Assembly (NCBI GenBank): GCA_964358765.1
Contig: CAYHPN010000002.1
Coordinates: 62,863 to 126,862, forward strand
Length of the DNA stretch: 64,000 nt
DNA from: Candidatus Woesearchaeota archaeon
GTDB taxonomy: Archaea > Nanobdellota > Nanobdellia > Pacearchaeales > GW2011-AR1
Direction: 5' to 3'
Shown: piece after piece, positions 1,409-63,925 of the stretch
How the letters are laid out: every line of letters begins with the position of its first letter
How positions within the stretch are numbered: the first letter of the stretch is position 1
Notes under the pieces: model-generated
Database searches by the model: none
Seen by the model: only the letters and a program-made list of their open reading frames with translations
Told to the model about the DNA's origin: nothing
Position numbers and translations under genes: made by a program

Positions 1409-2485
1409 ATGAAAAAGGTACTAAGAAATTTTGAAGTAGATTATATTCAGATAATGGATGAAAATGGTGAAGTAGATAAGAAACTTATGCCTAAAATAAA
1501 AAACGAAGAAATAAAAAAAATGTATGAACTTATGCTCTTGACAAGAGTATTTGATGAAAAAGCAGTAAAATTACAGAGAATGGGAAGAATTGGAACATAC
1601 CCTGCAGTGAAGGGAGAGGAAGCATGCCAGATTGGTTCTGCAATTCAGCTTGAAAAAGATGATTATGTATTTCCGGCATTTAGAGAGCATGGTGCTTTTA
1701 TTACAATGGGGGTTCCACTATATCAAATATTTCAGTATTGGGGAGGAGACGAAAGAGGAAGTAATTTTCCTAAAGATATTAAGTTGATGCCAGTCTGTAT
1801 TCCAATAGGCAGTCATTTACCTCATGCTGTTGGTGCGGCAATGGCGTTTAATTATTTAAAGAAGAAAAATCTTAGTGTAGTTTATTTTGGAGATGGAGCT
1901 ACTAGTGAAGGAGATTTTCATTCTGCGATGAATTTTGCCGGAGAATATAAAGCACCTACAATATTTATGTGTCAGAATAATCAATGGGCAATTTCTACTC
2001 CTGTAAAAGAACAGACCGCATCTTTTACAATTGCGCAAAAGGCAATTGCATATGGATTTGAAGGAATTCAAATTGATGGAAATGATGTTTTTGCAGTTTA
2101 TAGTGTTTTTAATGATGCAATAAAAAAGGCAAGAAGCGGGGGAGGCCCTACTTTTATTGAATGCTTTACATATAGAATGGGAGATCATACAACTAGCGAT
2201 GATGCAACAAGATACCGAACAGAAAAAGAAGTTAAGGAATGGGAAAAGAAAGACCCGATATTAAGACTGCGAAAATATATGATGAAAAATAAATTATTAA
2301 ATGAAAAAGTAGACGCCGAACTTGTTAAAAAATTTGAAAAACAGGTTGACGATGCTGTAGAGAAATATGAAAAAATAGAGCCTCAGAAAATTGAAGAGAT
2401 CTTTGCTTATACTTATAAAGAAATGACTCAAGAATTGAAAGACGAGCTTGTTAAATTGAAAGAAGATCTTAAAGGGACTGCTTAA
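1409..2485 (+). CDS. pdhA: pyruvate/2-oxoacid dehydrogenase E1 component, alpha subunit (TPP-binding)
   Basis: 358 aa. It carries the TPP motif YFGDGATSEGDFHSAMNFA...CQNNQWAIS and an RBS-like GAGGG upstream. Confidence 0.85.
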   Translation: MKKVLRNFEVDYIQIMDENGEVDKKLMPKIKNEEIKKMYELMLLTRVFDEKAVKLQRMGRIGTYPAVKGEEACQIGSAIQLEKDDYVFPAFREHGAFITMGVPLYQIFQYWGGDERGSNFPKDIKLMPVCIPIGSHLPHAVGAAMAFNYLKKKNLSVVYFGDGATSEGDFHSAMNFAGEYKAPTIFMCQNNQWAISTPVKEQTASFTIAQKAIAYGFEGIQIDGNDVFAVYSVFNDAIKKARSGGGPTFIECFTYRMGDHTTSDDATRYRTEKEVKEWEKKDPILRLRKYMMKNKLLNEKVDAELVKKFEKQVDDAVEKYEKIEPQKIEEIFAYTYKEMTQELKDELVKLKEDLKGTA

Positions 2486-2565: not shown

Positions 2566-3012
2566 TTACGCCTTCCTAAAGTTATTTGTTAGAAATTTCT
2601 CTTCATAAGCTATGTGCTCCTGGAATTTATCTAGAAACATTTTCCCATCTGTTTCTAAGGCAGTCTGTAATTCTAAATCTGATTTGTTCTTAATGTAACC
2701 TATAATAACTTTCCAATGCCCCCTTAGATTTTTATGATCTGTAATTATTGTTTTATGATATGGGAAGTCATTATCTAATGTTGAAATAGTTTTGAAAAAA
2801 TTCTCTTCTTTTTCTTCATGCTGTGACCAGAAAGACTCAAATTTTCTTAATAAAGCTAGTAAAGTTTGACGATTAATTTTATCTTTAATAGAAGATTCAA
2901 TCTCTTTAAGAAAGTTTTTTATGACAACATGCTCCTCTTTAATCACCTTAATCGGATGCATAACGTGGAATGATGAGTAAAGTATATAAAACTTATGAAT
3001 TTTTGTTTTCAA
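2566..3012 (-). CDS. hemerythrin-like (HHE cation-binding) protein; probable true start at 2961
   Basis: Repeated H/E-rich helices (EEHVVIK, WSQHEEKEE, DHKNLRGHW, QEHIAYEEKF). The first 17 codons overlap the RT stop, so the internal ATG at 2961 (MHPIKV...) is more plausible. Confidence 0.4.
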   Translation of the reverse strand: MKTKIHKFYILYSSFHVMHPIKVIKEEHVVIKNFLKEIESSIKDKINRQTLLALLRKFESFWSQHEEKEENFFKTISTLDNDFPYHKTIITDHKNLRGHWKVIIGYIKNKSDLELQTALETDGKMFLDKFQEHIAYEEKFLTNNFRKA

Positions 3013-4079
3013 ATCTGAGATTTCTTCATAATAATTTTTATTATTGAATGTTTAATTTGTTTTCTTAGTTTGTAAGTATTCGCCCATTTAGCATAAGCTT
3101 GCCAACCCTGTAAAGTTTCCGATAATCTCTTCAAAGTAATTTTATCATATTCGAATGATAAGATTTTATTTTGTATTTTTCTTATATTTCTTTTTCTTAA
3201 TAATTTGAAATGGTAAAAATTTCTAAAACCTACAAAATCAACTCCTTTTGATAAAGATATTGTCTTTGATTTATCTTGATGAAGCTGAATTTTTAGTTTT
3301 CCTTTAAGAAATTTGCCTATTTCTATTTTCCATTTTTCTAACTGCTCTATTGATTCATTTAGAATAACAAAATCATCTACATATCTAATATAATACTTAG
3401 ATCTTAAATTATGTTTAACAAAATAATCTAATTCGTTTAGATAGACGTTTGCGAAAAATTGAGAGGTTAAGTTTCCTAATGGCATTCCAATTTTTTTTTG
3501 CTTTTCATTTATTAATCCATTTTCTAAAATCTTTTTGATTAAAATAATTACTTTGTTGTCTTTTATTTTTTTGTTGATTATTTGAATGAGAATTTCTTGA
3601 TCTACTTCATTAAAATAATGCCTTATGTCTGCCTTTAAACAATAACCTTTAATTTGGTTATTAGTGAACTGCCCATTAATTTTTCCATTTTTAGATACTT
3701 TTCTTATAAATTTGTCAAATCTCTTTATTGGAAATAAAGTTCCCTTGCCTTTTCTGTTTGCACATGAATCATAAATAAAGGTTTTATCAAAAATTGGTTC
3801 TAGGATATTCACAATTGCGTGGTGAACAACTCTGTCTCTGAAATGTGATTTTGAAATAACTCTTGTTTTTGGATCTCTTAGGATAAATGTTTTAAGAGGC
3901 AAGGGTTTGTAAATCTCGCTTAACAATTCTTCTCTTAAAATTGTGAGATTTATTTCTAGATTTTTCTCAAATTCAAGAACATAATTTTTGAGAGTTTTTC
4001 CAATTCTGGCCTTTTTATATGCTAATTCTAAATTGCCTAGAGATATTATTTTTGAATATAGATTTTTGTAGGTTTTCAT
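3009..4079 (-). CDS. DGR-type reverse transcriptase
   Basis: Catalytic YVDD box (YIRYVDDFVIL). Motif 4 reads MPLGNLTSQFFANVYL, the LGxxxSQ signature of DGR RTs, rather than the group II QGxxxSP. The N-terminus MKTYKNLYSKIISLGNLELAYKKARIGK is typical. The track ORF extends to 4211 only because it reads through the TR. Confidence 0.85.
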   Translation of the reverse strand: MKTYKNLYSKIISLGNLELAYKKARIGKTLKNYVLEFEKNLEINLTILREELLSEIYKPLPLKTFILRDPKTRVISKSHFRDRVVHHAIVNILEPIFDKTFIYDSCANRKGKGTLFPIKRFDKFIRKVSKNGKINGQFTNNQIKGYCLKADIRHYFNEVDQEILIQIINKKIKDNKVIILIKKILENGLINEKQKKIGMPLGNLTSQFFANVYLNELDYFVKHNLRSKYYIRYVDDFVILNESIEQLEKWKIEIGKFLKGKLKIQLHQDKSKTISLSKGVDFVGFRNFYHFKLLRKRNIRKIQNKILSFEYDKITLKRLSETLQGWQAYAKWANTYKLRKQIKHSIIKIIMKKSQI

Positions 4080-4102
4080 TGAAGTAAAAGCCATAAGCTG
4101 AG

Positions 4103-4188
4103 CCATTCTACCATTGCCATTGGAGTTATCAAGATCGTCCCTATTGGAGTTAAGATTCAAGTTCCTGTTGAGGTAAACACCATGAAGG
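4103..4188 (-). repeat. DGR template repeat (TR)
   Basis: 86 bp, aligning without gaps to 4627-4712. The coding (minus) strand is rich in AAY codons (it would read YLNRNLNLNSNRDDLDNSNGNGRM). It lies 23 nt upstream of the RT start codon. Confidence 0.85.
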
Positions 4189-4280
4189 CAACTTCTTAGC
4201 CCATTAACCATTTATTTTTATCCTTAAGTTTATCTAATTATTTTGTTTTCTGTTTTAAGGACTCGACACCATCAAAACAT

Positions 4281-4317
4281 ATGTCAAGAACTATTCGAGT
4301 TCTTGAGCACACAAGAT
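4281..4317 (-). repeat. family A structured element copy (in the DGR VR-TR spacer)
   Basis: Minus strand reads GTGTGCTCAAGAACTcgaatAGTTCTTGACAT. The same TCAAGAAC / GTTCTTGACAT arms occur at 24151, 35221 and 63750. Confidence 0.6.
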
Positions 4318-4588
4318 TTGGTAAACCAAATGCTTGATGTTTCAATTTTACTTTACTTAATGCGGTGATTGAATTTTACTGGCTTTGCAATGTCAAAAAA
4401 AAACAAAGCACTATTAATGGACGTGTGGCCCAGCCATTTTATATGGCTAGGAGTATTAGAATGAAAATCAAGTTTTTATTCTTTTCCTTTAATTATTTCT
4501 GATCCTATTTCTAAAGCTCTTTGATATCTTTCTCTAACCTCATCTAATTCTGCTTCTTGTTTTCTTTGCATTTCTGCAATATAACTGC

Positions 4589-7201: not shown

Positions 7202-8182
7202 ATGGCAAAACTGAATATTATTGAAGCGATAAATCTTGCCCTAAAGCAGGAAATGAAAAGAGATAAAAATATAATTCTAATGGGGGAGGATGTTGGAGAG
7301 GATGGGGGAGTATTTAGGGTTACTGATGGATTGTATAAATTATATGGAAATGATAGGGTGCTTGATACGCCCTTAACCGAGCAGGGAATAATTGGAACTG
7401 CTATTGGTATGTCTATAGTTGGACTGAAACCAATTTGTGAAATACAATTTGAGGGTTTTATTTATACCGCGGTTGATCAAATAATAAATCACTTGGCTAG
7501 AATAAGAAATAGAACGAGAGGAAAATTTAATTGTCCAATTGTTATAAGATGCCCAATAGGCGGAGGAATTAAAGCACTTGAGCATCATTCTGATTCTCCT
7601 GAAAGTCTTTTTATTCATATGCCTGGAATAAAAGTTATATTGCCTTCAACACCTTATGATGCCAAAGGATTACTAATTGCTGCTATAAGAGACCCCGATC
7701 CAGTAATATTTTTTGAACCTAAGAAAATTTACAGAGCTATTAAAGAGGAAGTTCCAGAAGAAGATTATATTGTAGAGATTGGAAAGGCTAAAATAAGAAA
7801 AGAAGGAAAGGATGTAACTCTTATTACTTATGGTTCTTCTGTAAAAACAGCAATGGAAGCAGTTGAACATATGTCTGGAATTGATGTTGAGGTAATTGAT
7901 TTAAGAACACTGTCGCCTCTAGATGATAAGACGATAATTGAATCTGTGAAAAAAACAGGGAAAGTTGTTATTGTTCATGAAGCTGTTAAGACTTTAGGAC
8001 TAGCGGCTGAAATAATTGCAAGAATAAATGAAAAGGCATTTTATAGTTTAGAAGCACCAATTGAAAGAGTAACTGCTCCGGATATAATTGTTCCATTGCC
8101 AAAAAACGAGGATAAGTATATGATTAATCAGCAGAAGATTATTAATGCTGTGAATAGGGTTATAGAGAATTCAAAAAAGTAG
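7202..8182 (+). CDS. pdhB: pyruvate/2-oxoacid dehydrogenase E1 component, beta subunit
   Basis: Transketolase-like pyrimidine-binding and C-terminal domains (GEDVGEDGGVFRVT, DTPLTEQGIIG, FEPKKIYR, DLRTLSPLD). Confidence 0.85.
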   Translation: MAKLNIIEAINLALKQEMKRDKNIILMGEDVGEDGGVFRVTDGLYKLYGNDRVLDTPLTEQGIIGTAIGMSIVGLKPICEIQFEGFIYTAVDQIINHLARIRNRTRGKFNCPIVIRCPIGGGIKALEHHSDSPESLFIHMPGIKVILPSTPYDAKGLLIAAIRDPDPVIFFEPKKIYRAIKEEVPEEDYIVEIGKAKIRKEGKDVTLITYGSSVKTAMEAVEHMSGIDVEVIDLRTLSPLDDKTIIESVKKTGKVVIVHEAVKTLGLAAEIIARINEKAFYSLEAPIERVTAPDIIVPLPKNEDKYMINQQKIINAVNRVIENSKK

Positions 8183-23886: not shown

Positions 23887-23892
23887 AATTTT

Positions 23893-24585
23893 AATCAAAA
23901 GGCTTAATTTTTTTGATAAATTCTTCAGGATGGATTATTTTAATTCCTTCAAATTCTTTGATGTCTAAGAGATGTTTATCTTTTGTAATAATGTAATCGA
24001 CTTCACCTTCTACGGCACATTCAATAATTTTATTATCATCTATATCTGCTTTGACAATATCAATTTTTCTTTTTGGTTCTATTAATGTTGATATGTCAAG
24101 AATTGGTTTTTTCGTAAACTCCCTACTTTAGTTCGTGAGAAAGAAAAAACAATTCTTGAGCATGCTCAAGAACCACTAACACGCTCCGGAATTTATTCCG
24201 AGAGTTCTTGACATCTTTGTAATTTGTTCAACTGTTCTTTTCATTTCTAGATTTTTGTCCTTAATTTTATCTTGATATATAGTAAATTATAACAAAAATA
24301 ATTTCCTATGGAAATATAGTAATTTTAAACGAAGTAAATTCGTCTAAAATAAAATTTATGAGAAACTTGCTTTCGAATAAATTACTAAATGTGCATCTGC
24401 ACCCTGCCCGAAGGGCATTATTTTAAATATCGTTATAATTTAATACTTCACTAAATTCTTCAATTATTTCTTTGGAAAGTGTTAATTCTACTTCTCCTTT
24501 TTCAACCATTTCTATAATCTTTAAAGAATCACCAGCCCAAAAAGTGGAAGAGACAAGAATATTTGTGTCCGTGGTGATTTTCATT
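23893..24585 (-). pseudogene. PIN-domain toxin gene interrupted by a ~305-335 bp non-coding insertion
   Basis: The N-terminal part (24585 down to ~24427) reads MKITTDTNILVSSTFWAGDSLKIIEMVEKGEVELTLSKEIIEEFSEVLNYNDI then a stop. The C-terminal part (~24120 down to 23893) reads FTKKPILDISTLIEPKRKIDIVKADIDDNKIIECAVEGEVDYIITKDKHLLDIKEFEGIKIIHPEEFIKKIKPFD. Joined, they make a normal ~130-aa PIN protein. Confidence 0.75.
24121..24425 (+). mobile_element. composite structured non-coding insertion (family A module + family C module) inside the PIN gene
   Basis: It contains the perfect 20-bp palindrome TTCTTGAGCATGCTCAAGAA (24153-24172), the GTTCTTGACAT arm (24204-24214) and the family C module (24282-24420). 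The left boundary is uncertain (24090-24125). No ORF and no terminal inverted repeats were seen. Confidence 0.6.
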
Positions 24586-24586
24586 T

Positions 24587-24865
24587 TCACTCCTTTTTTT
24601 GTTTCCTGTATCTATGTATAATATCTACAACTTCGTCTTCTCTTAAATCTGATTTTTTCGCTGATTCTCGGAGTGATTTAGTAATCTCATTGAAAGATTT
24701 ATCATTGGATATTTTCTTAATAATCAATGTATTTCCTTCTAAAATAAATAATACCTTTTCTCCTTCAACTAACTCTAACTCCGACCTTATTTTGGAGGGT
24801 ATTGCTATCTGTCCTCTAGAGCTTATTGTTCCTAGTTCGATTGTTCTGTTTGCCATTTTATGCAC
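24587..24865 (-). CDS. AbrB/SpoVT-type antitoxin of the interrupted PIN gene
   Basis: GTISSRGQIAIPSKIRSELELVEGEKVLF motif. The stop lies 1 nt from the PIN start. Confidence 0.7.
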   Translation of the reverse strand: MHKMANRTIELGTISSRGQIAIPSKIRSELELVEGEKVLFILEGNTLIIKKISNDKSFNEITKSLRESAKKSDLREDEVVDIIHRYRKQKKE

Positions 24866-24996: not shown

Positions 24997-25407
24997 TTAT
25001 TTATTTATCTTTGCCATTATTTCCTTAATTATCTTGCGTCTAACCTGTCTTCTTAATTTGTAAGTATTCGCCCATTTTGCATAAGCCTGCCAACCTTGCA
25101 AGAATTCTTTAAGTTTTCCTAGAGATATTTCATCTCTTTCAAACAATAAAATCTTATTTCTCATTTTTCTTATGTTTCTTTTTCTTAATAGTTTGAAATG
25201 ATAAAAATTTCTGAAGCCAACAAAATCAACTCCGCTTGACAGTGAAATTATTCTCGATTTATCTTGATGAAGCTCCAAACTTAATTTTTCTTTTAGAAAC
25301 TCGTTAATTTGATATTTCCAGTTATCCATATGTAGCAGTTCCATTAATATTTCCTTTAATTTTAGTAATATTGGTGCGTAAAATATAGATATTTTACGTA
25401 ATAACAA
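24997..25407 (-). pseudogene. C-terminal fragment of a second DGR-type reverse transcriptase
   Basis: LHQDKSRIISLSSGVDFVGFRNFYHFKLLRKRNIRKMRNKILLF...LQGWQAYAKWANTYKLRRQ is closely similar to the C-terminal ~115 aa of the RT at 3009-4079. The finger/palm region, including YVDD, is absent. Confidence 0.75.
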
Positions 25408-25442: not shown

Positions 25443-26717
25443 ATGATGGATTTAACTAGGATATTAAGGGACCAAAGACAGGAACTAGATTATAGTTTAA
25501 AGAAAAAAAAGATAATTGAAAGAGAAGCTGAGGAAATATTTAAAAATTTTCTAAATTCTAAACTAATAAAAATTATTAGCGGCATTAGAAGATCTGGGAA
25601 ATCAGTATTTATTTATCTGTTATTAAAAGATAAAAAATTTGCATATATGAATTTCGATGATGAAAGAATAATAAATGTTAATACAGATGATATTTTGTCT
25701 TCTTTTTATGAAATATATGGGAAAGATATTGAAAACATTTTTTTGGATGAAATTCAAAATTTGGACAATTGGCAATTATTTGTTAATAGATTACATAGAT
25801 CAGGATTTAATATTTTTATAACGGGAAGCAATTCAAAACTTTTAAGCAAAGAACTAGCAACCCACCTCACAGGAAGGCATCTAACTATGGAGTTATTTCC
25901 ATTTAGTTTTAGAGAATATCTCAGAGCAATGGAATTTAGAGAAAACAAAGATACTACAAAAGGTGAAAGCTTATTAAAAAGTGAATTAAAGAAGTATCTA
26001 GAAATTGGAGGTTTTCCAGAAATAGTTGTTGAAAGAGAAAATCCTGGAAATTACTTAAGAGAATTATATTCCAAGATTGTTGAAAGAGATATAATAAGCA
26101 GATATAAAATATCTTTTAAAAAAACATTCAAAGAGATTTCTTCTACTTTAATTAATAACCCTTCTAAACTTATAAGCTATAATAAAATTAAGAACAATTT
26201 TGGACTTGGAAGCGAACATACTGCAAAGAATTATATTTCCTATTTGGAAGAATCCTATTTAATATTTATATTGAACAGATTTTCATTTAAACCAGTTGAA
26301 ATAGAAAAAAGTGAGAAAAAAATATATGTTATAGATACTGGACTAATTAATAATATGTCTTTCAAATTAAGCGATAATTATGGGAGCATATATGAAAATG
26401 CTGTGGCAATAGAATTAATGAGATTAAAATCGTTTAATAAAAACATGGAAATTTATTATTGGAAAAATATATTGCATGAAGAGGTTGATTTTGCAATAAA
26501 GGAAAAATCTAGAGTTAAAGAGCTAATTCAAGTTTGTTATGACTTAAACAATTTTGATACAAAAGAAAGAGAGTTGAGATCTTTAATAAAAGCAAGTGAT
26601 GAATTAAAATGTGATAATCTTTTTATTATTACTGGAAACTATAAAAAGGAAGAAAAGATAAAAAATAAAATTATTAATTATATACCATTATATGAGTGGT
26701 TGTTGAAATCTCGATAA
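25443..26717 (+). CDS. AAA+ ATPase with a C-terminal DUF4143-like domain
   Basis: Walker A GIRRSGKS, Walker B IFLDEIQ and the conserved block ITGSNSKLLSKELATHLTGRH. Paralog of 29063-30307. Confidence 0.75.
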   Translation: MMDLTRILRDQRQELDYSLKKKKIIEREAEEIFKNFLNSKLIKIISGIRRSGKSVFIYLLLKDKKFAYMNFDDERIINVNTDDILSSFYEIYGKDIENIFLDEIQNLDNWQLFVNRLHRSGFNIFITGSNSKLLSKELATHLTGRHLTMELFPFSFREYLRAMEFRENKDTTKGESLLKSELKKYLEIGGFPEIVVERENPGNYLRELYSKIVERDIISRYKISFKKTFKEISSTLINNPSKLISYNKIKNNFGLGSEHTAKNYISYLEESYLIFILNRFSFKPVEIEKSEKKIYVIDTGLINNMSFKLSDNYGSIYENAVAIELMRLKSFNKNMEIYYWKNILHEEVDFAIKEKSRVKELIQVCYDLNNFDTKERELRSLIKASDELKCDNLFIITGNYKKEEKIKNKIINYIPLYEWLLKSR

Positions 26718-28968: not shown

Positions 28969-29062
28969 AGGTTTTGTAGGAAAAAATTAATCTTGAATTT
29001 GTTTGGAATTTTAATTATTTTGTAATACATAAATTTAAATACTTTTGTGCATCATAAACTAT

Positions 29063-30307
29063 ATGATTAAGGAGATTCTTATAGCTCAAAAACAAGAATT
29101 AGAGAAGAGGCTTAAAGAGATTTATATAGAAAGAACTGCAAATTTAAAAAAATTAGAGGCTCCATTAATAAAAGTTGTTATTGGACCTAGAAGAGCGGGA
29201 AAATCTTTTTTTGCACTAAATTTTCTAAATAAAAAAGGAAATTTTGGATATGTAAATTTTGATGATGAAAAATTAATGGATATTGAAAATTATGATGCTA
29301 TTTTAGAGGCTATGAACACTGTTTACAACGCGCCTAAATTTATTTTATTTGATGAAATTCAAAACTTGCCAAAATGGGAATTATTTATGAACAGATTACA
29401 TAGGCAAAACTTAAATATAATCGTAACTGGTAGCAATTCTAAATTATTAAGTAATGAACTTGCAACACATTTAACAGGAAGACATTTTTTAATAACCATT
29501 TTTCCTTTTTCTTTTAAAGAGTATTTAGAACTAGAAAAAAAAGAGTTAACTTTGAATCAAATAAAAGAAAAGCTTTACAAATATCTAATTTATGGAGGTT
29601 ATCCAGAACCTTTAATAAGAAATATAGATTATAAAGATTATTTGACATCTCTTCTTAGCTCAATTATATATAAAGATATTATAAAGAGATACAAGATAAG
29701 GTTTGCAGGAGGCATAGAAGACTTAACATATTATCTTATGTCAAATATTGCAAATGAGTATTCGTACAATAATCTAGCAAAGATGACAAAAATAAAAAGT
29801 GTTCATACAATTATTAAATATCTTGATTATCTTGAAGAAGCTTTTATTTTCTTTAGTTTGGGAAAATATTCGCATAAAGTTAAAGAGCAAATTACTTCAA
29901 ATAAAAAAATTTATTGCATTGACAATGGGTTTATTCAGGCAAAAACATTTAAATTATCTCCCGACATGGGCAAATTGTATGAAAATGTAGTTGCATTGGA
30001 ATTGAAGAAAAAAGAATTTAATAATGAGATAAAATTATTTTATTGGAAAAATCAACAACATGAAGAGGTTGATTTTGTAATTAAAGAAGGAATAAAAATA
30101 AAACAATTAATTCAAGTATGTTTTGATATTAAAAATTTAGAAACCAAAAATAGAGAGATACGGGCATTGATTAAAGCAGGAAAAGACCTAAAGTGCAATA
30201 ATCTATGGATAATAACAGAAGATAAGGAAGGCAAAGAAAAAACAGAATGGTTTGGAGATAAAGCAACAATAAATTATATTCCGCTTTGGAAATGGCTTTT
30301 GGATTGA
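29063..30307 (+). CDS. AAA+ ATPase with a DUF4143-like domain (paralog)
   Basis: GPRRAGKS, ILFDEIQ and VTGSNSKLLSNELATHLTGRH motifs. The ATG at 29063 is preferred over the TTG at 29045, by analogy with the paralog's N-terminus. Confidence 0.75.
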   Translation: MIKEILIAQKQELEKRLKEIYIERTANLKKLEAPLIKVVIGPRRAGKSFFALNFLNKKGNFGYVNFDDEKLMDIENYDAILEAMNTVYNAPKFILFDEIQNLPKWELFMNRLHRQNLNIIVTGSNSKLLSNELATHLTGRHFLITIFPFSFKEYLELEKKELTLNQIKEKLYKYLIYGGYPEPLIRNIDYKDYLTSLLSSIIYKDIIKRYKIRFAGGIEDLTYYLMSNIANEYSYNNLAKMTKIKSVHTIIKYLDYLEEAFIFFSLGKYSHKVKEQITSNKKIYCIDNGFIQAKTFKLSPDMGKLYENVVALELKKKEFNNEIKLFYWKNQQHEEVDFVIKEGIKIKQLIQVCFDIKNLETKNREIRALIKAGKDLKCNNLWIITEDKEGKEKTEWFGDKATINYIPLWKWLLD

Positions 30308-30335
30308 TTTTGACTTTTGGAAATTATTAAAATTT

Positions 30336-30450
30336 AATGCCTTCGGATTACATGCTGGCGCATTGTTTGCAATTTATTCGAAAGTAATTTCTCATAAATT
30401 TTATTTTGTTTGGATTTACTTCAAGCAAAATAACTCTCTTTCCATAAACT
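30336..30450 (-). repeat. family C structured element, inverted copy
   Basis: Its reverse complement aligns to 24300-24420 and 62380-62502, sharing GAAGTAAAT, AAAATAAAATTTATGAGAAA..TTTCGAATAAATT and CCGAAGGCATT blocks. Confidence 0.6.
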
Positions 30451-30492
30451 TGCTTAAAGTTTATATACAAAAAATTAAACATAGAGAAAATA

Positions 30493-35090: not shown

Positions 35091-35220
35091 GTTTTTATTT
35101 TGTTTTTTTATTATTTCTCTTTGGATTTACGTATAGTATTCATAAACTCTGTTTAATTTTTATATGTCTAGAATTACATCGATATAGCTAGTTACTTTAG
35201 TGATAAAATAAAGAAAATGT

Positions 35221-35285
35221 AATTCTGGAGCATGATCAAGAACTACGAATACGCTAAGGGAATTTATTCCGAGAGTTCTTGACAT
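35221..35285 (+). repeat. family A structured element copy
   Basis: AATTCTGGAGCATGATCAAGAAC....GAGAGTTCTTGACAT aligns to 24151-24214, including the internal GGAATTTATTCCGAGAG hairpin. Confidence 0.6.
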
Positions 35286-35463
35286 TAAGGAAATAGTGAA
35301 ACTAATTTTATGATTTAGTATTAATTCCTATATTGTCGTAAAATCCTTTGGTTTTTAATCTGGTACGAAATTCTTTAATTAAAATTAAATAATTAAAAAA
35401 ATTTCTGAAAATAAGAGTATCTTAGTGTAATAAATACATATACTTGAAGATAATTATATTTAA

Positions 35464-35506
35464 ATAGTGTTTATCATACAATTAGTTAGTGTATTAAATA
35501 CACTAA
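35464..35506 (+). promoter_or_regulatory. tandem NrtR-type operators (sites A and B) over the TATA box and TSS of the pncB operon
   Basis: Site B (35486-35506), TTAGTGTATTAAATACACTAA, is a perfect 21-bp palindrome. Site A (35464-35484) is ATAGTGTTTATCATACAATTA, starting 22 bp upstream. An extra degenerate site is at 35422-35442. TATA-like TTTAAATA is at 35459-35466. Confidence 0.7.
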
Positions 35507-35519
35507 AGGAGACAAAAAA

Positions 35520-36878
35520 ATGCAAACAGAAAAAAAGGAAAGGGAACAAAGAACGATGCTTACTGATTTATATCAGTTAACAATGAATGCAGGGTATTTT
35601 GAAAATGAAAAGAATGATATGGCTACATTTGACTTGTTTATACGCGATCTTCCTAAAGATTGGGGTTTTTTCATAGCGAACGGGTTAGAAGATGCCGTAG
35701 ATTATGCAACAAACATTAAATTTGAGGAAGAAGACATTGAATTCTTAAGAGAACAGAATATTTTTAATGAAAATTACTTAGAATCTCTAATAGACTTTAG
35801 ATTTACGGGAGAGATATACGCTGTTAAAGAGGGAACACCAATTTCTGCAAACACTCCTATTCTAAGTGTTAGGGCACCAAGAATGGAAGCTCAATTGCTT
35901 GAAACTATTCTTCTTAATACCGTAAACTTTCAGACAATGATTGCTTCTAAAGCAAATAGAGTAGTACTAGCAGCAAAAGAAGCAAATGTTATAGATTTTG
36001 GTTTAAGGAGAGCACAAGGAAGAGACGCCGCACTAGAAGGAGCAAGAGCCGCATACATTGGAGGATGCATAGGAACAAGCGATGTTATGGCTGGGAAAAA
36101 ATATAGCATTCCAATATTTGGAACACAAGCACATAGTTTTGTAATGAGTTTTCAAAGTGAAATTGAATCTTTTAGAGCATATGTAAAAACTTTCCCTAAA
36201 AATACAACATTATTGATTGATACTTATGACACAATAAATGGTGCGAAAAATGCAGTAATAGTTGGAAAAGAACTTGAAAAAAGCGGGGGAAGACTTGGAG
36301 GCGTTAGACTTGATTCTGGAAATCTCGCAGAATTATCTATAGAAGCAAGAAAGATATTAGATGACGGCGGGCTGAATTATGTAAAAATATTTGCAAGCAA
36401 TGATCTGAATGAATATAAAATTTCTAAATTAAGAGAAAGAGATGCGAGAATTGATGGATATGGGGTTGGAACTGAATTAATAACTGCAAAACCAGTCGCT
36501 GCAATTCCAGGAGTTTACAAACTTGTAGAAGATGAGAACGGAGCTAAAATTAAATTAGCTGAAGGGAAGAAAAGTTATCCTGGAAGAAAACAAGTTTACA
36601 GAGTAGAACAAAATGGGCAGTATATTGAAGATATTCTTGCTTTAGAAGGAGAAAGAATTAATGGAATACCTCTATTAGAAAAAGTAGTTGAAAATGGAGA
36701 AAGAATAAGAGCAAGGAGAACTCTAAAGGAAATAAGAAAGTATTGCAAAGAAGAAGTTGCAAAGATGCCTCAATCAACTAAAGAAGTTTATTCTAAACAA
36801 TATGAAATAAAAGAATCTAGAGGCTTAACTAATCTCATTTCTGAATTGACTGTTAAATATGGAGGCGGAAAAAAATGA
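35520..36878 (+). CDS. pncB: nicotinate phosphoribosyltransferase
   Basis: LTDLYQLTMNAGYF, FGLRRAQG, GTQAHSF and VRLDSGN motifs; 452 aa. Confidence 0.9.
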   Translation: MQTEKKEREQRTMLTDLYQLTMNAGYFENEKNDMATFDLFIRDLPKDWGFFIANGLEDAVDYATNIKFEEEDIEFLREQNIFNENYLESLIDFRFTGEIYAVKEGTPISANTPILSVRAPRMEAQLLETILLNTVNFQTMIASKANRVVLAAKEANVIDFGLRRAQGRDAALEGARAAYIGGCIGTSDVMAGKKYSIPIFGTQAHSFVMSFQSEIESFRAYVKTFPKNTTLLIDTYDTINGAKNAVIVGKELEKSGGRLGGVRLDSGNLAELSIEARKILDDGGLNYVKIFASNDLNEYKISKLRERDARIDGYGVGTELITAKPVAAIPGVYKLVEDENGAKIKLAEGKKSYPGRKQVYRVEQNGQYIEDILALEGERINGIPLLEKVVENGERIRARRTLKEIRKYCKEEVAKMPQSTKEVYSKQYEIKESRGLTNLISELTVKYGGGKK

Positions 36879-45265: not shown

Positions 45266-45321
45266 TTCTTTTTACTATCTTAGTCTACATAATACATATT
45301 ATAAATTATAATAATCTTTAT

Positions 45322-45364
45322 ATAGTGTAGTATATACAATAAGTTATGGTATTTAATACAATAA
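45322..45364 (+). promoter_or_regulatory. tandem NrtR-type operators over the TATA box and start codon of the NMNAT operon
   Basis: Site A (45322-45342) is ATAGTGTAGTATATACAATAA. Site B (45344-45364) is TTATGGTATTTAATACAATAA, 17 of 21 matches to the perfect palindrome. Spacing is 22 bp. TATA TTTATATA is at 45317-45324. The ATG at 45346 lies inside site B. Confidence 0.6.
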
Positions 45365-45993
45365 CTAAGGAAAAGGAAAAAACACTAGGAAGAGTTGGAA
45401 CAATAGGAAGATTCAAACCATTGCACAATGGCGCTTTTACGTTATTGAAATCTTTATGTGAGAGAGCAGATGAAGTAATCATAGGAATTGGAAGTTCAAA
45501 TAAATACAATTTAAGAAACCCTTTTACGCAAGAAGAAACCAAAGAGATGATTGATCTAGCACTCCAAGATAATTTTAACAATTATTCTTTTGTATTTATC
45601 CCTGATTTTGGACACATTCCTCAATATAAAGATGGGAAGTATTGGAGAACTGTTGTAGTTGAGAAATTTGGAAAACTAGATTATTTCGTATCTGCAAACG
45701 ATTATGTAAAAGATTTGCTCAAAGATCATTACAATATCTTAGAATCATATTTTGTTGTACCAAGAGAAGATAGATTCAGATTACGCGGGGCACAAGTACG
45801 CTACGCCATGGCCACCGGAGAGAACCTGAAAAATTTAGTGCCAAAAAGAGTTGCAGAATATTTGGAAAATAATGATCTAGTTAAAAGATTCAACAAAGAG
45901 TTTGGACTGGAAACTCTTGCCTGCGTTATTGATTCTGATTATACTGAAGATGAAAGTGCAGCAGAAGAAAAAATGCATGCACGGGAGAAATAA
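45346..45993 (+). CDS. NadM-like nicotinamide-nucleotide adenylyltransferase (variant active-site motif)
   Basis: GRFKPLHNGAFTLL corresponds to the cytidylyltransferase GRFxPxHxGH motif, but the last His is replaced by Ala. The C-terminal tail is acidic. Confidence 0.6.
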   Translation: MVFNTITKEKEKTLGRVGTIGRFKPLHNGAFTLLKSLCERADEVIIGIGSSNKYNLRNPFTQEETKEMIDLALQDNFNNYSFVFIPDFGHIPQYKDGKYWRTVVVEKFGKLDYFVSANDYVKDLLKDHYNILESYFVVPREDRFRLRGAQVRYAMATGENLKNLVPKRVAEYLENNDLVKRFNKEFGLETLACVIDSDYTEDESAAEEKMHAREK

Positions 45994-49361: not shown

Positions 49362-49474
49362 AATAATTAATAATCTAATTTTACCGAAGATATTTATTAA
49401 AAAAGAGATAAAACAATTTATTTTATTTAAATTTTACTAAAATCACAAATAAAGCGCAGCACCACAAAGTTTAT

Positions 49475-49517
49475 ATAGTGTATTGTATACAATTAGTTAG
49501 TGTATTAAGTACACTAA
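49475..49517 (+). promoter_or_regulatory. tandem NrtR-type operators over the TATA box and TSS of the pnuC-nadR-nadK operon
   Basis: Site A (49475-49495) is ATAGTGTATTGTATACAATTA. Site B (49497-49517) is TTAGTGTATTAAGTACACTAA, one mismatch from the perfect palindrome. BRE/TATA AAAGTTTATATA ends at 49477. Confidence 0.7.
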
Positions 49518-49530
49518 AGGAAAAAACAAA

Positions 49531-49854
49531 ATGACAATAACACCAGAACAAGCAAAAGAAACAAACAAAAGGAACAATAAAGGAAAAATAGAAACTTTAG
49601 AGAAAAAGATAGACAAAATATTAGTTGATAATATAAATTCGTGCAATAGAAGAGAAGGAATTATTGTTGGAGTGAGCACTTTAGAATTAGGAGACTTATT
49701 TGAATTTATAAAAGAAAGATATGAAGATGCTGGATGGGCACTAAGATATGAAAGCGACCAGAGAGATGGAGATTATTATGTATTTACCCCTAAAAGAAGG
49801 GTAATGAATAATTATGCAGGAAGTGGAGAAAATTCGGGAGGTGGAGAAAAATGA
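49531..49854 (+). CDS. hypothetical protein (first gene of the pnuC operon)
   Basis: 107 aa with an ATGA overlap with pnuC. Confidence 0.4.
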   Translation: MTITPEQAKETNKRNNKGKIETLEKKIDKILVDNINSCNRREGIIVGVSTLELGDLFEFIKERYEDAGWALRYESDQRDGDYYVFTPKRRVMNNYAGSGENSGGGEK

Positions 49855-57022: not shown

Positions 57023-57691
57023 ATGAAAGATAATCACCAAAGACCTTCAGTTACTGTTGATATAGTTATATTTAGTATTAGAGAGGATGAATTGCAAGTA
57101 CTTTTAGTTAGGAGAGACATTGATCCTTTCAAGGAAAAATGGGCGTTACCAGGAGGATTTGTAAAAATAGAAGAGAACTTGGAAGAAGCTGCAACAAGAG
57201 AATTAAGAGAAGAGACTGGAGTGAAAGATGTTTATCTTGAACAATTGTATACTTTTGGAGATGTAAAAAGAGATCCAAGAGAAAGAGTAATTACTATTGC
57301 TTATATGGCTTTAATTAATTCTGAAAATATTAAGGTGGAAGGAAAGACAGATGTTTCTGACGCTAGATGGTTTGCAATAAAAAAACTGCCATTACTGGCA
57401 TTTGATCATAAAAAAATAATAGAATATTCTCTTAAACGACTGATGTGGAAATTCGAGTATACTTCTGTTGCATTTTCACTATTACCAAAAGAGTTTACCA
57501 TCAGCAAAGTTCAAAAGATTTATGAAATAGTTTTTGATAAAATATTTGATAAGAGAAATTTTGCTAAAAAATTATTGTCTTTAAATGTATTGGAAGAAAA
57601 AGGAATTAAAAAAGACGTTTCACATAGACCTCCCATGCTCTATTCGATAAAAAAGAACATACCCAAGATAATTGAAATTTTGAAAGTTTAA
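57023..57691 (+). CDS. nrtR: NrtR-family regulator (Nudix domain + C-terminal winged helix)
   Basis: Nudix box LPGGFVKIEENLEEAATRELREETGV followed by LAFDHKKIIEYSLKRLMWKFEYTSVAFSLLPKEFTISKVQKIYEIVFDKIFDKRNFAKKLL, the architecture described for NrtR. Confidence 0.8.
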   Translation: MKDNHQRPSVTVDIVIFSIREDELQVLLVRRDIDPFKEKWALPGGFVKIEENLEEAATRELREETGVKDVYLEQLYTFGDVKRDPRERVITIAYMALINSENIKVEGKTDVSDARWFAIKKLPLLAFDHKKIIEYSLKRLMWKFEYTSVAFSLLPKEFTISKVQKIYEIVFDKIFDKRNFAKKLLSLNVLEEKGIKKDVSHRPPMLYSIKKNIPKIIEILKV

Positions 57692-61553: not shown

Positions 61554-62360
61554 ATGATAAGGATTGCAGATGTATTATTAAATCCAAAAAGAGCAAAAAG
61601 GCACTCAATTGAACTTATATTAATTGCATTCGTTTATACCTCTTTATCTATGTTTTTAGGATATTGGATTTTTCCTGAATATTCATCTTTATTTAGCATA
61701 TTTTTCAGTGTTATCTCGTGTGTTTATGTTGTGCAAGGCATTTTAATTGTTGAAGAAAAAAGAGAAAGGGACTTTGATGATGAATTCATTATCTTAAAAA
61801 AACATATGAGGACATTGAAATTTTTGATAGTATTATTTTTCGGTTTTTTATTAGCTTATGTTTTTTGGACAATAGTTTTGCCAGAACGAATTGGAGTAGA
61901 GATATTTAGCATACAAAAAACTGAGATTGAAAACATCAGATCTATTACGGGAAGCGCAATAAATCCTGATAATTTTACAATTATTTTGTATAATAATTTT
62001 AGAGTGCTTGTTTTTTCTTTAATATTGGCTTTGTTTTATGGGGCTGGATCGATATTTATTTTAGTTTGGAATGCTAGTATAATGGGTTTTGTAATAGGCA
62101 CTCTAGCAAGAAATGTTGTTGGTCTTGCCTCTTTACCTCAAGTATTTCTAAAATATTTTATTCATGGCCTCCCTGAAATGATCGCTTATTTTATTGTTGC
62201 TTTGGTCGGGGGAATATTATTTATAGAAATTATTAAAGGAGATTTTGTTAAAGGTAAAGTTAAAAGAACTTTTATAGATATCTTCTTCCTTTTAATCATT
62301 GCAATATTCTTATTAGTTCTTGCTGCACTGCTAGAAACCTATGTTTCTCCTTTGATATAA
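61554..62360 (+). CDS. SpoIIM-like (DUF95) membrane protein
   Basis: IFILVWNASIMGFVIG and FIHGLPEMIAYFIVALVGG are typical of stage II sporulation protein M-family proteins. Confidence 0.55.
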   Translation: MIRIADVLLNPKRAKRHSIELILIAFVYTSLSMFLGYWIFPEYSSLFSIFFSVISCVYVVQGILIVEEKRERDFDDEFIILKKHMRTLKFLIVLFFGFLLAYVFWTIVLPERIGVEIFSIQKTEIENIRSITGSAINPDNFTIILYNNFRVLVFSLILALFYGAGSIFILVWNASIMGFVIGTLARNVVGLASLPQVFLKYFIHGLPEMIAYFIVALVGGILFIEIIKGDFVKGKVKRTFIDIFFLLIIAIFLLVLAALLETYVSPLI

Positions 62361-62361
62361 T

Positions 62362-62502
62362 GTAAATTATAACGAAAATAATTTCTATTGGAAATATAGT
62401 TATTTTGTTCAAAGTAAATTTGTTCAAAATAAGAATTTAGGCAACACTTGCTTTTGACTAAATTACTAAATGTACCTCTGCACCCTGCCCGAAGGGCATT
62501 AT
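62362..62502 (+). repeat. family C structured element
   Basis: It aligns over about 140 nt to 24282-24420, including the identical 3' block CTGCACCCTGCCCGAAGGGCATTAT. Confidence 0.65.
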
Positions 62503-62525
62503 CTTGATTTGAATACTAATAATGA

Positions 62526-63599
62526 TTACATATCTTGTTCGGCCTTAGTTTTTTCTTCCATTCTTGAAAGAGCTAGGAAATATATTCCATAAAATAAGAA
62601 AAATATTCCTAGTAGAGAAATTGCAAAGACTATATTTATGGACAATCCAACCTCTTGCAAGTCCTTAAATGAAGCTAGAAAATTAAAACCTATTATTGTA
62701 AAAGACAAAGCTTTTATAAATTTCCCCCCCATTAATAATAAAATTAAGGAAAAAATTACTGGAACTACCGGGCCAGCGAGTGAGATAAATAGTTTTCCAG
62801 ATAAATCGTCGCATAATATCTCAGAATAAGGATATGATCTTTTCTCATAGAATATTGAGCGAGCATCACAATCATAGAACCTTGAAACAGAAACATGACT
62901 GAATTCGTGCATGCCTAAAGTGGAAATTAAAACCAGATTAGATATAGCAATTATATAAATTAGATACTTTATGAACAAGATAATTCTTGGCTCATCTTTA
63001 TGTATAAAATTTAGGGATTTTATCTTTTTATCTTTATTGTTCTGCAAAAAATAATATATAAAAAATATAAATGCTAAATTTGATATCAATATATAGTATA
63101 GAAAGTCTCCAATGTTAAACAAATATAAAAACTGAAAAATTAAAGATAATGAAGAGTATAATATTCCAGCATACGCAACTTTTCTCTCCTCCGGATGATT
63201 AATATAATTTATTGATAAAATCAACGTTAAGATTAAAGATATAGAACTTAGAAAAACTGTAAAATTACCTATATAAAAAGAGAAAAATATTAAAAAATAA
63301 GAACATAAATATAACAAATTTAATTTTTTATGGTATGAGTTATTTATTTTGTAAAGAGCAAATGTCTGCACTAGTAATATTATTGAATACATTAAAATAA
63401 AATCAAGATTAGAATATGGAAAAATTTTGAAAACCCATAAAAGTGAGAAGATTAAAAAGAATAGATAACAGCCTAAAATTAAATAAAATCCTTTTGTATA
63501 AATTGTCAATTTTTTATTTAAACTTTTTAATATAAAATGAGATAAAATTACAGTAATAATTAAAGCAGGGATAATATTTAAGATATATGTTGTTTCCAT
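62526..63599 (-). CDS. polytopic membrane protein with an HExxH motif (possible membrane metalloprotease)
   Basis: 357 aa with at least 8 TM helices and MHEFSHV between helices. Confidence 0.4.
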   Translation of the reverse strand: METTYILNIIPALIITVILSHFILKSLNKKLTIYTKGFYLILGCYLFFLIFSLLWVFKIFPYSNLDFILMYSIILLVQTFALYKINNSYHKKLNLLYLCSYFLIFFSFYIGNFTVFLSSISLILTLILSINYINHPEERKVAYAGILYSSLSLIFQFLYLFNIGDFLYYILISNLAFIFFIYYFLQNNKDKKIKSLNFIHKDEPRIILFIKYLIYIIAISNLVLISTLGMHEFSHVSVSRFYDCDARSIFYEKRSYPYSEILCDDLSGKLFISLAGPVVPVIFSLILLLMGGKFIKALSFTIIGFNFLASFKDLQEVGLSINIVFAISLLGIFFLFYGIYFLALSRMEEKTKAEQDM

Positions 63600-63670: not shown

Positions 63671-63925
63671 GTGAAAGCTCCCCACAGCAAGCTATGGGGC
63701 ATCTAAATGTCAAGGATTTTTTGAATAAATTCAAGAGAATTTTAGATATCCTTGAACATGCTCGAGAATTGAAACTAAAAAAGATTAAACAATTCTCTAC
63801 ATGTTAACTGATTACAACTTATTGCCTTGGCGTTTATTTAATTTAAACATTCTACATTGCATCTTTTATTTTATTCACATTCGTGGTTTAATCCCCAAGG
63901 CTAGCCTTGGGGTATTACTGATAAT
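63671..63925 (+). repeat. full-length composite element (5' hairpin + family A module + family B module)
   Basis: GTGAAAGCTCCCCAcagcaagctaTGGGGC hairpin, then CCTTGAACATGCTCGAGAATTG...CAATTCTCTACAT (A module), then TGATTACAA, CTACATTGCAT and the CCCCAAGGctagCCTTGGGG hairpin (B module). Confidence 0.55.

Follow-up and report, generated by a model that had tools for sequence, protein, structure and literature searches.

Palindrome-associated transposable elements (PATEs) are non-autonomous derivatives of IS200/IS605 elements described in Haloquadratum, Natronomonas and Geobacillus stearothermophilus; they have no inverted repeats or target duplications, carry palindromes near both ends and often encode guide-type RNAs (PMC3119063, PMC10055086). 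The IS200/IS605 element ISDra2 of Deinococcus radiodurans enters its target 3′ of TTGAT and does not duplicate it, and a ~150-nt RNA that runs through its right end into the flanking DNA guides TnpB (PMC8612924). We analyzed a 64-kb stretch of DNA (the window, 31% G+C) from an uncultured, probably DPANN-type archaeon, which contained three copies of a hairpin-rich repeat of roughly 150 nt, designated family C. With moderate confidence, family C is interpreted here as non-autonomous mobile DNA of ~145-155 bp that resembles the PATEs and would be mobilized in the IS200/IS605 manner. Most probably it is a parasitic mobile element of small size, and it may also encode a structured RNA.

Coordinates are positions of the window, and the anatomy of family C is described on the strand used in an initial annotation of this DNA, which had proposed the repeat. 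A covariance model built from 12 copies of family C and scanned over the whole window gave exactly three matches, at 24279-24426 (plus strand, 123 bits), 62359-62507 (plus strand, 117 bits) and 30329-30467 (minus strand, 135 bits); the next-best matches were merely the reverse strands of these three sites. The core pattern matched three times and a 25-nt block of the 3′ part matched exactly at two sites, each against 0.00 matches expected by chance in the window. Thus all three copies of the initial annotation were present, as was the 3′ block that it had found identical in two of them. The context that it had described was also confirmed: the 62.4-kb and 30.4-kb copies lay between convergent genes, and the 24.3-kb copy adjoined a truncated PIN gene.

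Genes identical to those of the window were found on contigs from Hainich groundwater well H43 (filter fractions of 0.1 and 0.2 µm), and sequencing depth was taken from Logan contigs of four runs from this well. Depth on family C was 10 to 100 times that of its flanks: the flanks were covered 5-7x, the 62.4-kb copy 60-140x (at at least 80% identity), the 30.4-kb type 100-220x against 5x for its own flanks (at at least 90% identity) and the conserved core 560-756x. Sequence beyond the edges of the repeat that did not align agreed poorly between contigs, indicating many different flanks. At the 62.4-kb copy the depth rose at 62351/62355 and fell at 62502/62509. By these edges the ~140-nt unit of the initial annotation was real but slightly too short; the depth-defined units extended over ~24277-24428 (plus strand, copy c1), 62357-62508 (plus strand, c2) and 30329-30470 (minus strand, c3), and units of family C were 139-156 nt long. 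The edges of c2 carried a 2-nt ambiguity, 62355-62506 being equally good.

A specific pattern scan of metagenome contigs yielded nine loci, all from well H43 (loci on contigs other than the window are cited by L numbers), with about eleven further copies. Near-identical copies of family C were also found in other environments, without the flanking genes. The public contigs of this genome were shorter than 10 kb. Two more copies were located just outside the window, at ends of such contigs, together with a divergent inverted copy. Public contigs began or ended inside copies of family C (L158, 6-150; L160, 3110-3154 and, on the minus strand, 2915-3043; L004, at the contig end), indicating that the repeat fragments assemblies. 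In L160 the divergent copy stood head-to-head with a standard one. A variant breakpoint inside family C in L059 was best explained as an assembly chimera, or as a recombinant between the L058 locus and c1.

The unit began with a variable head of two types, each with a hairpin, which supplemented hairpins 1-3 (H1-H3) of the initial annotation. Copies c1 and c2 had a type I head (ATATAWWGTAAATTATAAC...ATTTCCTATGGAAAT), and c3 had a type II head (TATATAAAC-TTTAAAC-AAGTTTAT; 5′ hairpin ATAAACTT/AAGTTTAT), the most abundant type. In c2, the head was followed by a conserved, unpaired purine box, GGAAAKAKAG (62390-62399, plus strand, as are the features that follow), located directly 5′ of H1 and retained in the divergent L160 copy. 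H1 (62400-62432) comprised a stem of 13-14 bp with one position-conserved mismatch and the loop GTRAA (GTAAA or GTGAA). H2 (62434-62464) comprised an outer stem, AATTTAG/CTAAATT in c2 and AATTTAK/MTAAATT across the family, a 2x2 internal loop and an inner stem. H3 (62472-62483) had a 4-bp stem, and H4 (62486-62498), near the 3′ end, read TGCCC GAA GGGCA and was followed by a 10-nt end, TTATCTTGAT. H4 was present in every copy, and its sequence differed between three types of tail; across the family the last ~10 nt were ATTAAYTTG or TTATCTTGAT. When folded with DNA parameters, every copy formed one hairpin in its head and another in its tail, despite the differing sequences. The two head types, the variants of H1 and the three tail types were combined differently among copies that shared cores; family C is a mosaic, recombining family. 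No reading frame was conserved between its subfamilies, and the unit is too short for a transposase.

The initial annotation had pointed to conserved loops on covarying stems, and this pattern held after further copies were added. In alignment A2 the H1 stem changed from ACGAA/TTCGT to CAAA/TTTG with the loop GTAAA kept, the outer stem of H2 exchanged a T:A for a G:C pair and H3 changed from GTGC/GCAC to ATGC/GCAT, all as claimed. For statistics, 12 distinct copies were compared with controls in which the 3′ partners were slid by 1-3 columns and with 500 column shuffles. H1-H3 were 97.9% paired, against 35-51% with slid partners, and eight pairs had changed on both sides; none of the 500 shuffles reached the observed values. 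Five of the two-sided changes were in H1 and two in H2, where 99% of cells were paired, and the closing pair of H3 switched between A-U and G-C. In the divergent copy (L160, 2915-3043, minus strand) six of the eight outer pairs of H1 were flipped (CUAUAAAAG/CUUUUAUAG) with pairing intact, and this copy had the loop GUGAA. A swap from C-G to G-C was seen in the type II head hairpin of L057 and L058. The compensatory pairs, and the flipped stem of L160 in which pairing was kept, indicated that the hairpins of family C are under selection; related sequences are few, so the statistics are supportive and not final. About three alignment cells favored each strand in the asymmetry between G-U and A-C, which was therefore uninformative on the strand, and the covariation is equally well accounted for by a DNA strand that folds or by RNA of either strand.

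The left end of the unit was defined by TTGAT followed by ATATA..., or by YTTG followed by AGGTATATAAAC, and the right end by ...GGCATTAAYTTG. In the 12 copies read there were no terminal inverted repeats, the 5′ end (TATATAAAC or ATATAWWG) not being the reverse complement of the 3′ end (GGCATTAAYTTG). TTGAT or TTAAT preceded the type I copies and YTTK the type II copies. At c2 the motif on the left was TTTGAT (62351-62356, plus strand; TTTAAT in a relative that lacks the element, see below), and the copy itself ended in the same motif, CTTGAT (62503-62508). In every copy the 10-12 nt of the left flank resembled the unit's own 3′ end; examples of flank and unit end are ATTAACTTGAGG and ...CATTAACTTG, TTATCTTGAT and ...TTATCTTGAT, and TTTTTAAT and ...ATTTTAAT. 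Part of the right-hand motif forms the H4 stem and hence belongs to the element, so the resemblance on the left is best read as a target preference. The motif holds TAA and TGA on one strand (as in ATTAACTTGA) and TTA and TCA on the other, and this content of stop codons would explain why copies cluster at gene ends. In at least six loci a convergent gene had its stop codon 0-25 nt from the right end. Some copies were located upstream of genes (61 nt before the start codon in L056 and 20 nt in L058), and some were antisense to both neighboring genes.

An allele without the element was found for c2. A 151-nt contig from an estuary run (X8) matched 62271-62353 and 62532-62583 of the window at 97-99% identity and had just 16 other letters, AATTTGAAATCTTGAA, between the two matches. 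Removal of 62357-62508 from the window left CCTTTGAT joined to TTGAATAC, which aligned with CCTTTAAT joined to TTGAAATC of the relative, thus positioning the element 3′ of TTGAT (TTAAT in the relative). As read from the sequence, the upstream SpoIIM-like gene still ended in Pro-Leu-Ile-stop after the insertion, with its stop codon (62358-62360) now within the repeat, and the convergent membrane-protein gene had lost its last five codons.

Copy c1 was the right-hand part of an insertion that split a PIN_3 toxin gene. The N-terminal half of this gene (24427-24590, minus strand) corresponded to positions 4-50 of the Pfam PIN_3 profile and the C-terminal half (23890-24127, minus strand) to positions 69-115; the two halves scored 25 and 34 bits separately, and when fused, reading through the insertion, they matched the profile in one stretch (4-115) at 61 bits. 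The insertion was ~300 nt long and was made up of c1 preceded by part of a different abundant repeat. In this insertion the other repeat ended in TTATCTTGAT, the end motif that it has in common with family C, and c1 was therefore exactly where an insertion of family C was expected. The AbrB/MazE-type antitoxin gene of the split PIN_3 gene was intact (24587-24865, minus strand).

Tandem pairs of family C with a 147-nt period were found in loci L061 and L063, and a tandem junction, ...CATTATCTTGAT joined to ATATAGTAAATT, was found in a drinking-water run (X5). These results showed that family C is present in tens to more than 100 copies, that gene ends and intergenic spacers are sites of its insertion, and that it can insert next to its own end or to those of other small repeats, giving tandem pairs. 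In L062 (2746-2790), and in the matching right flank of L060, the sequence directly right of family C (...ACATCGCCACTAGGCGAGTCAG...) was itself repeated, at 140-366x, and is another case of small repeats placed end to end. Just downstream of the tandem pair of L061 there were four closely spaced GTGTTACA/GTTACAC motifs (7560-7640), which may be iterons or protein-binding sites. A fragment of an IS481-family transposase gene (L063, 4213-4839, minus strand) was located ~600 nt from the other tandem pair; such a transposase is an unlikely partner of family C, because this class makes inverted ends and target duplications.

The absence of inverted ends, the hairpins at both ends, the 5′ motif repeated as the last bases of the unit, the lack of a clear target duplication and the tandem insertions together form the "peel and paste" signature of IS200/IS605 elements and PATEs. 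Under this model family C would move as a folded single strand. An enzyme recognizing the hairpins and encoded elsewhere in the genome would cut 3′ of TTGAT on both sides, and the excised strand would be pasted 3′ of another TTGAT without duplicating it; among known models, an IS200/IS605-type Y1/HUH transposase fits best. Conservation extended beyond the ends to the whole multi-hairpin core, with its GGAAAKAKAG box and GTRAA loop, which suggests that family C also encodes a structured RNA acting in trans. By analogy, such an RNA might read out of the right end into the flank and be used like the guide RNA of TnpB (omega RNA or right-end RNA).

Family C was like the PATEs in encoding no protein, in lacking terminal inverted repeats, in having a palindrome near each end and in its heterogeneous, recombining subfamilies of many copies. 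It may also share with them a short conserved oligonucleotide directly 5′ of the unit, the lack of an evident target duplication and a guide-type RNA acting in trans, the last proposed for family C by analogy. It differed from them in that neither the window nor the fetched contigs yielded an IS200/IS605 transposase or TnpB with matching ends, that its end hairpins are unlike each other, with the left one very near the end, and that it is most conserved in an internal two-hairpin core, with a left-flank similarity of 10-12 nt. Its likeness to ISDra2 lay in the type I copies c1 and c2, which follow the same pentanucleotide, TTGAT, in the ~150-nt structured region adjoining the right end and in the apparent lack of target duplication; however, there was no similarity in sequence or in Rfam matches and no tnpB overlapping family C, and the type II copies use YTTG/TTTT followed by AGG and not TTGAT.

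Other small repeats were more distant. Repetitive extragenic palindromic sequences and bacterial interspersed mosaic elements (REP/BIME) are bacterial hairpin repeats, built on single hairpins of 20-40 nt with a conserved 5′ motif of the GTAG type, and are believed to be mobilized by REP-associated tyrosine transposases (RAYT proteins, Y1/HUH) encoded elsewhere, as is proposed for family C with an HUH enzyme. Both they and family C are high-copy hairpin repeats concentrated after gene ends and between convergent genes, with stems kept by compensating changes, but family C is an archaeal, five-hairpin unit of ~150 nt. [quoted passage not shown] Family C is likewise small, non-coding, intergenic, multi-copy and polymorphic between strains, but lacks inverted ends, and a duplication, if there is one, amounts to no more than an ambiguous 5 nt. 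An H/ACA or C/D guide RNA, a 5S rRNA, an integron attC array and an IS110 bridge RNA were ruled out on architecture: family C has neither characteristic boxes nor a pocket, and it comes with no cassette array and no neighboring recombinase, the 357-aa protein next to it being a membrane protein.

Several observations weighed against mobilization in the IS200/IS605 manner. Searches of the window and of ~100 kb of related contigs found no TnpA, TnpB, IscB or other transposase, and no longer element with family C ends. The 5′ hairpin begins only 4-9 nt from the end, closer than the left spacing of IS608, and the two end hairpins are dissimilar. The left-flank similarity of 10-12 nt exceeds a 4-5-nt target motif. 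The mixed orientations in the window (+, -, +) fit poorly with a strict lagging-strand bias. The element ends in its target motif, so that a 5-nt duplication of TTGAT is indistinguishable from none; the single empty allele is not fully clean, differing by 8 vs 18 nt right of the element. No guide-RNA family of Rfam matched, and no RNA-seq run searched contained this DNA.

Selection on an internal structure would also suit a multigene family of structured RNA genes of ~115-120 nt, each with an archaeal promoter of the TATA type in its head and a T-rich stop in its tail, whose copies would have spread through recombination or duplication and without dedicated transposition; the hairpins would then be RNA structure, and the purine box and GTRAA loop would be contacts for protein or RNA. 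Conservation peaked centrally (purine box, H1 and H2) and not at the ends, both head types had a TATA-like box ~26 nt upstream of the base of H1, and in the tail a T-rich run came after a short G+C hairpin. On the annotated strand GTAAA/GTGAA is a GNRA-like pentaloop and there were G-U pairs at alignment columns 86:104 and 91:99, and the divergent L160 copy kept the whole architecture. A small-RNA role for family C is possible, but RNA genes spread in this passive way are rather unlikely as an explanation, since they account for neither the sharp edges nor the empty allele, the disruption of the PIN gene, the tandem units or the likeness between left flank and 3′ end. The best match to the TATA consensus of this genome, TTTATATA, seen before its nicotinamide adenine dinucleotide (NAD) genes, was on the opposite strand and pointed outward, A-C mismatches favoring the reverse strand were about as many as the forward G-U pairs, and neither an RNA run containing this DNA nor an Rfam match was found. 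It is unlikely, too, that family C carries, as a self-contained unit, a guide-type or adaptor RNA, or a folded single-stranded DNA, for an enzyme not yet recognized in DPANN-type archaea; it might then be an orphan guide RNA for a nuclease or recombinase elsewhere, or hijack XerA through a dif-like site that is rebuilt when its ends are joined. Such a site, an 11-6-11 palindrome of 28 nt (CTTTGATATAA-TGTAAA-TTATAACGAAA, 62350-62377, plus strand), spanned the left junction of c2. When it was compared with the arms of the dif site of Pyrococcus abyssi, ATTGGATATAA-TCGGCC-TTATATCTAAA (PMC2958812), one position out of the 18 specified was different; 0.00 matches of this quality were expected by chance, and the corresponding match at c1 had three mismatches. 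When the right end of family C is joined to its left end, as in circular or tandem forms, the dif-like site is rebuilt entirely, and the tandem junction of run X5 had restored it in full. Family C might be mobilized or rearranged by the XerA tyrosine recombinase of its host, or by a related enzyme, in the way of bacterial Xer-exploiting elements or dif modules. The 11-6-11 site would then be formed by the type I head together with the 3′ end of the unit; site-specific recombination would naturally yield the direct end repeats and tandem multimers. However, XerA cuts at the spacer borders (PMC8371274), and the comparison of empty and filled alleles placed the junction after TTGAT, inside the left arm and off the 6-bp spacer. 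The right junctions of single copies were poor dif-like sites, the type II heads (the most abundant) and the L160 copy had none, and the empty site matched the left arm only (8/11), the right arm being poor. Dozens of dispersed copies also contrast with the one chromosomal dif site, and mobilization by XerA is considered improbable.

The initial annotation had itself suggested two further roles, and neither was borne out. As the 3′ domain of a non-autonomous retroelement, family C would be a retrotransposed RNA like a short interspersed element, copied by the group-II-like reverse transcriptase encoded at 3009-4211. The window holds this gene, and a remnant of another near c1, the genome is rich in small repeats, and the left-flank repeats could in principle be target duplications. 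But this reverse transcriptase, the only one of the window, has an RT-16-like RNA of its own upstream and is unlinked to family C, of which the covariance model found no copy nearby. Most copies of family C had no reverse transcriptase close by and none of the features of such an element (intron domains, an A-rich tail or 5′ truncations) was present, and in some tail types the right-end repeat is part of H4 and hence element and not target sequence; retrotransposition therefore seems very unlikely. The second role, a passive bidirectional terminator or a stability module of the 3′ untranslated region, conserved because genes need it, would agree with the many copies that have a convergent gene's stop codon 0-25 nt away, and with hairpin-rich units that have T-rich borders. 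It is just as hard to credit, since copies occur upstream of genes (L056, L058), antisense to both neighbors and inside the PIN gene, a close relative does without the 62.4-kb copy, the T runs are at most 4 nt and follow a weak 5-bp hairpin, and the location at gene ends is explained by the stop-codon-rich target motif. A repeat that is dispersed in many copies, present or absent between genomes, tandem in places and able to split a gene is mobile DNA and not a fixed module.

Database searches placed family C in no described family, and annotation as part of a known transposable element was not obtained. An Rfam search of the whole window at gathering thresholds and of the three copies at E<=10 gave nothing credible, the best matches being RT-2 (E=6) and a Leptospira small RNA (E=0.23). 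The IS605-associated motifs included in Rfam 15 did not match family C at E<=10, nor did its intron or retron families, and a scan for tRNA and transfer-messenger RNA found none. When GTDB (one genome per species) was scanned with a 21-base core pattern, 50 loci were obtained, all of them chance matches in coding DNA. In viral contigs the specific pattern had no match, and a looser one found chance loci only, none of which scored with the covariance model; plasmid and phage collections gave no match to family C, and a peptide translated from it had no match in a protein database. Further empty sites were sought through relatives of a 177-aa neighboring gene, but its protein was an orphan, and exact-protein look-ups of neighboring genes returned the same strain with the element present, or nothing. 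Contigs bearing family C encoded a KH-domain protein of the universal archaeal group arCOG04150 and an archaeal-type YchF-related GTPase, and from these proteins the host is most likely a very small, DPANN-type archaeon.

The window contained other repeats and genes of note. A second repeat family, more abundant than family C, was located at 24100-24215 (plus strand), 35210-35285 (plus strand) and 63707-63771 (minus strand), and in L059 at 1921-2045 (minus strand); the piece in the PIN insertion belongs to it. It contained a palindrome, TTCTTGAGCATGCTCAAGAA, a hairpin, CCGGAATTTATTCCGAGAG, and TTCTTGACAT, had a depth of 150-370x against ~5x for its flanks and had no Rfam match; a short motif in it resembled the RNA upstream of the reverse transcriptase. 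At 3009-4211 and 4191-4451 (minus strand), the reverse transcriptase (3009-4211, 400 aa) was group II intron-like, at 141 bits, below the NCBIfam cutoff, with no intron RNA match; the RT-16-like RNA upstream of it scored 41 bits (E=3e-4), below the gathering score. A hemerythrin gene follows it, and the remnant near c1 (24997-25407, minus strand) was the C-terminal part of a paralogous reverse transcriptase gene. A conserved 64-nt promoter/operator block, TTTAWATAGTGT...TAGTGTATTAAATACACTA, preceded three NAD-biosynthesis clusters (35459-35522, 45317-45380 and 49470-49533), and a gene for an NrtR-type Nudix regulator was present at 57023-57691; together they are probably an NrtR regulon. Two paralogous AAA_14/DUF4143 ATPase genes (25443-26717 and 29045-30307, plus strand) matched the candidate defence family PDC-S01, and some contigs of the population joined one to the other, skipping ~3617 nt, indicating deletion or hybrid alleles.

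On present evidence family C is a fresh example of a familiar kind of small selfish DNA and introduces no new principle. Should XerA prove to be hijacked, no Xer-exploiting mobile element would have been described in archaea before family C. The conserved multi-hairpin core is a good place to seek a new pairing of RNA or single-stranded DNA with a protein, be it a transposase, a guided nuclease or XerA. If family C is mobilized as proposed, it would represent an undescribed high-copy mobile family in a poorly sampled, very small archaeon, with about one copy per 15-20 kb, that disrupts genes, alters gene ends and breaks metagenome assemblies.

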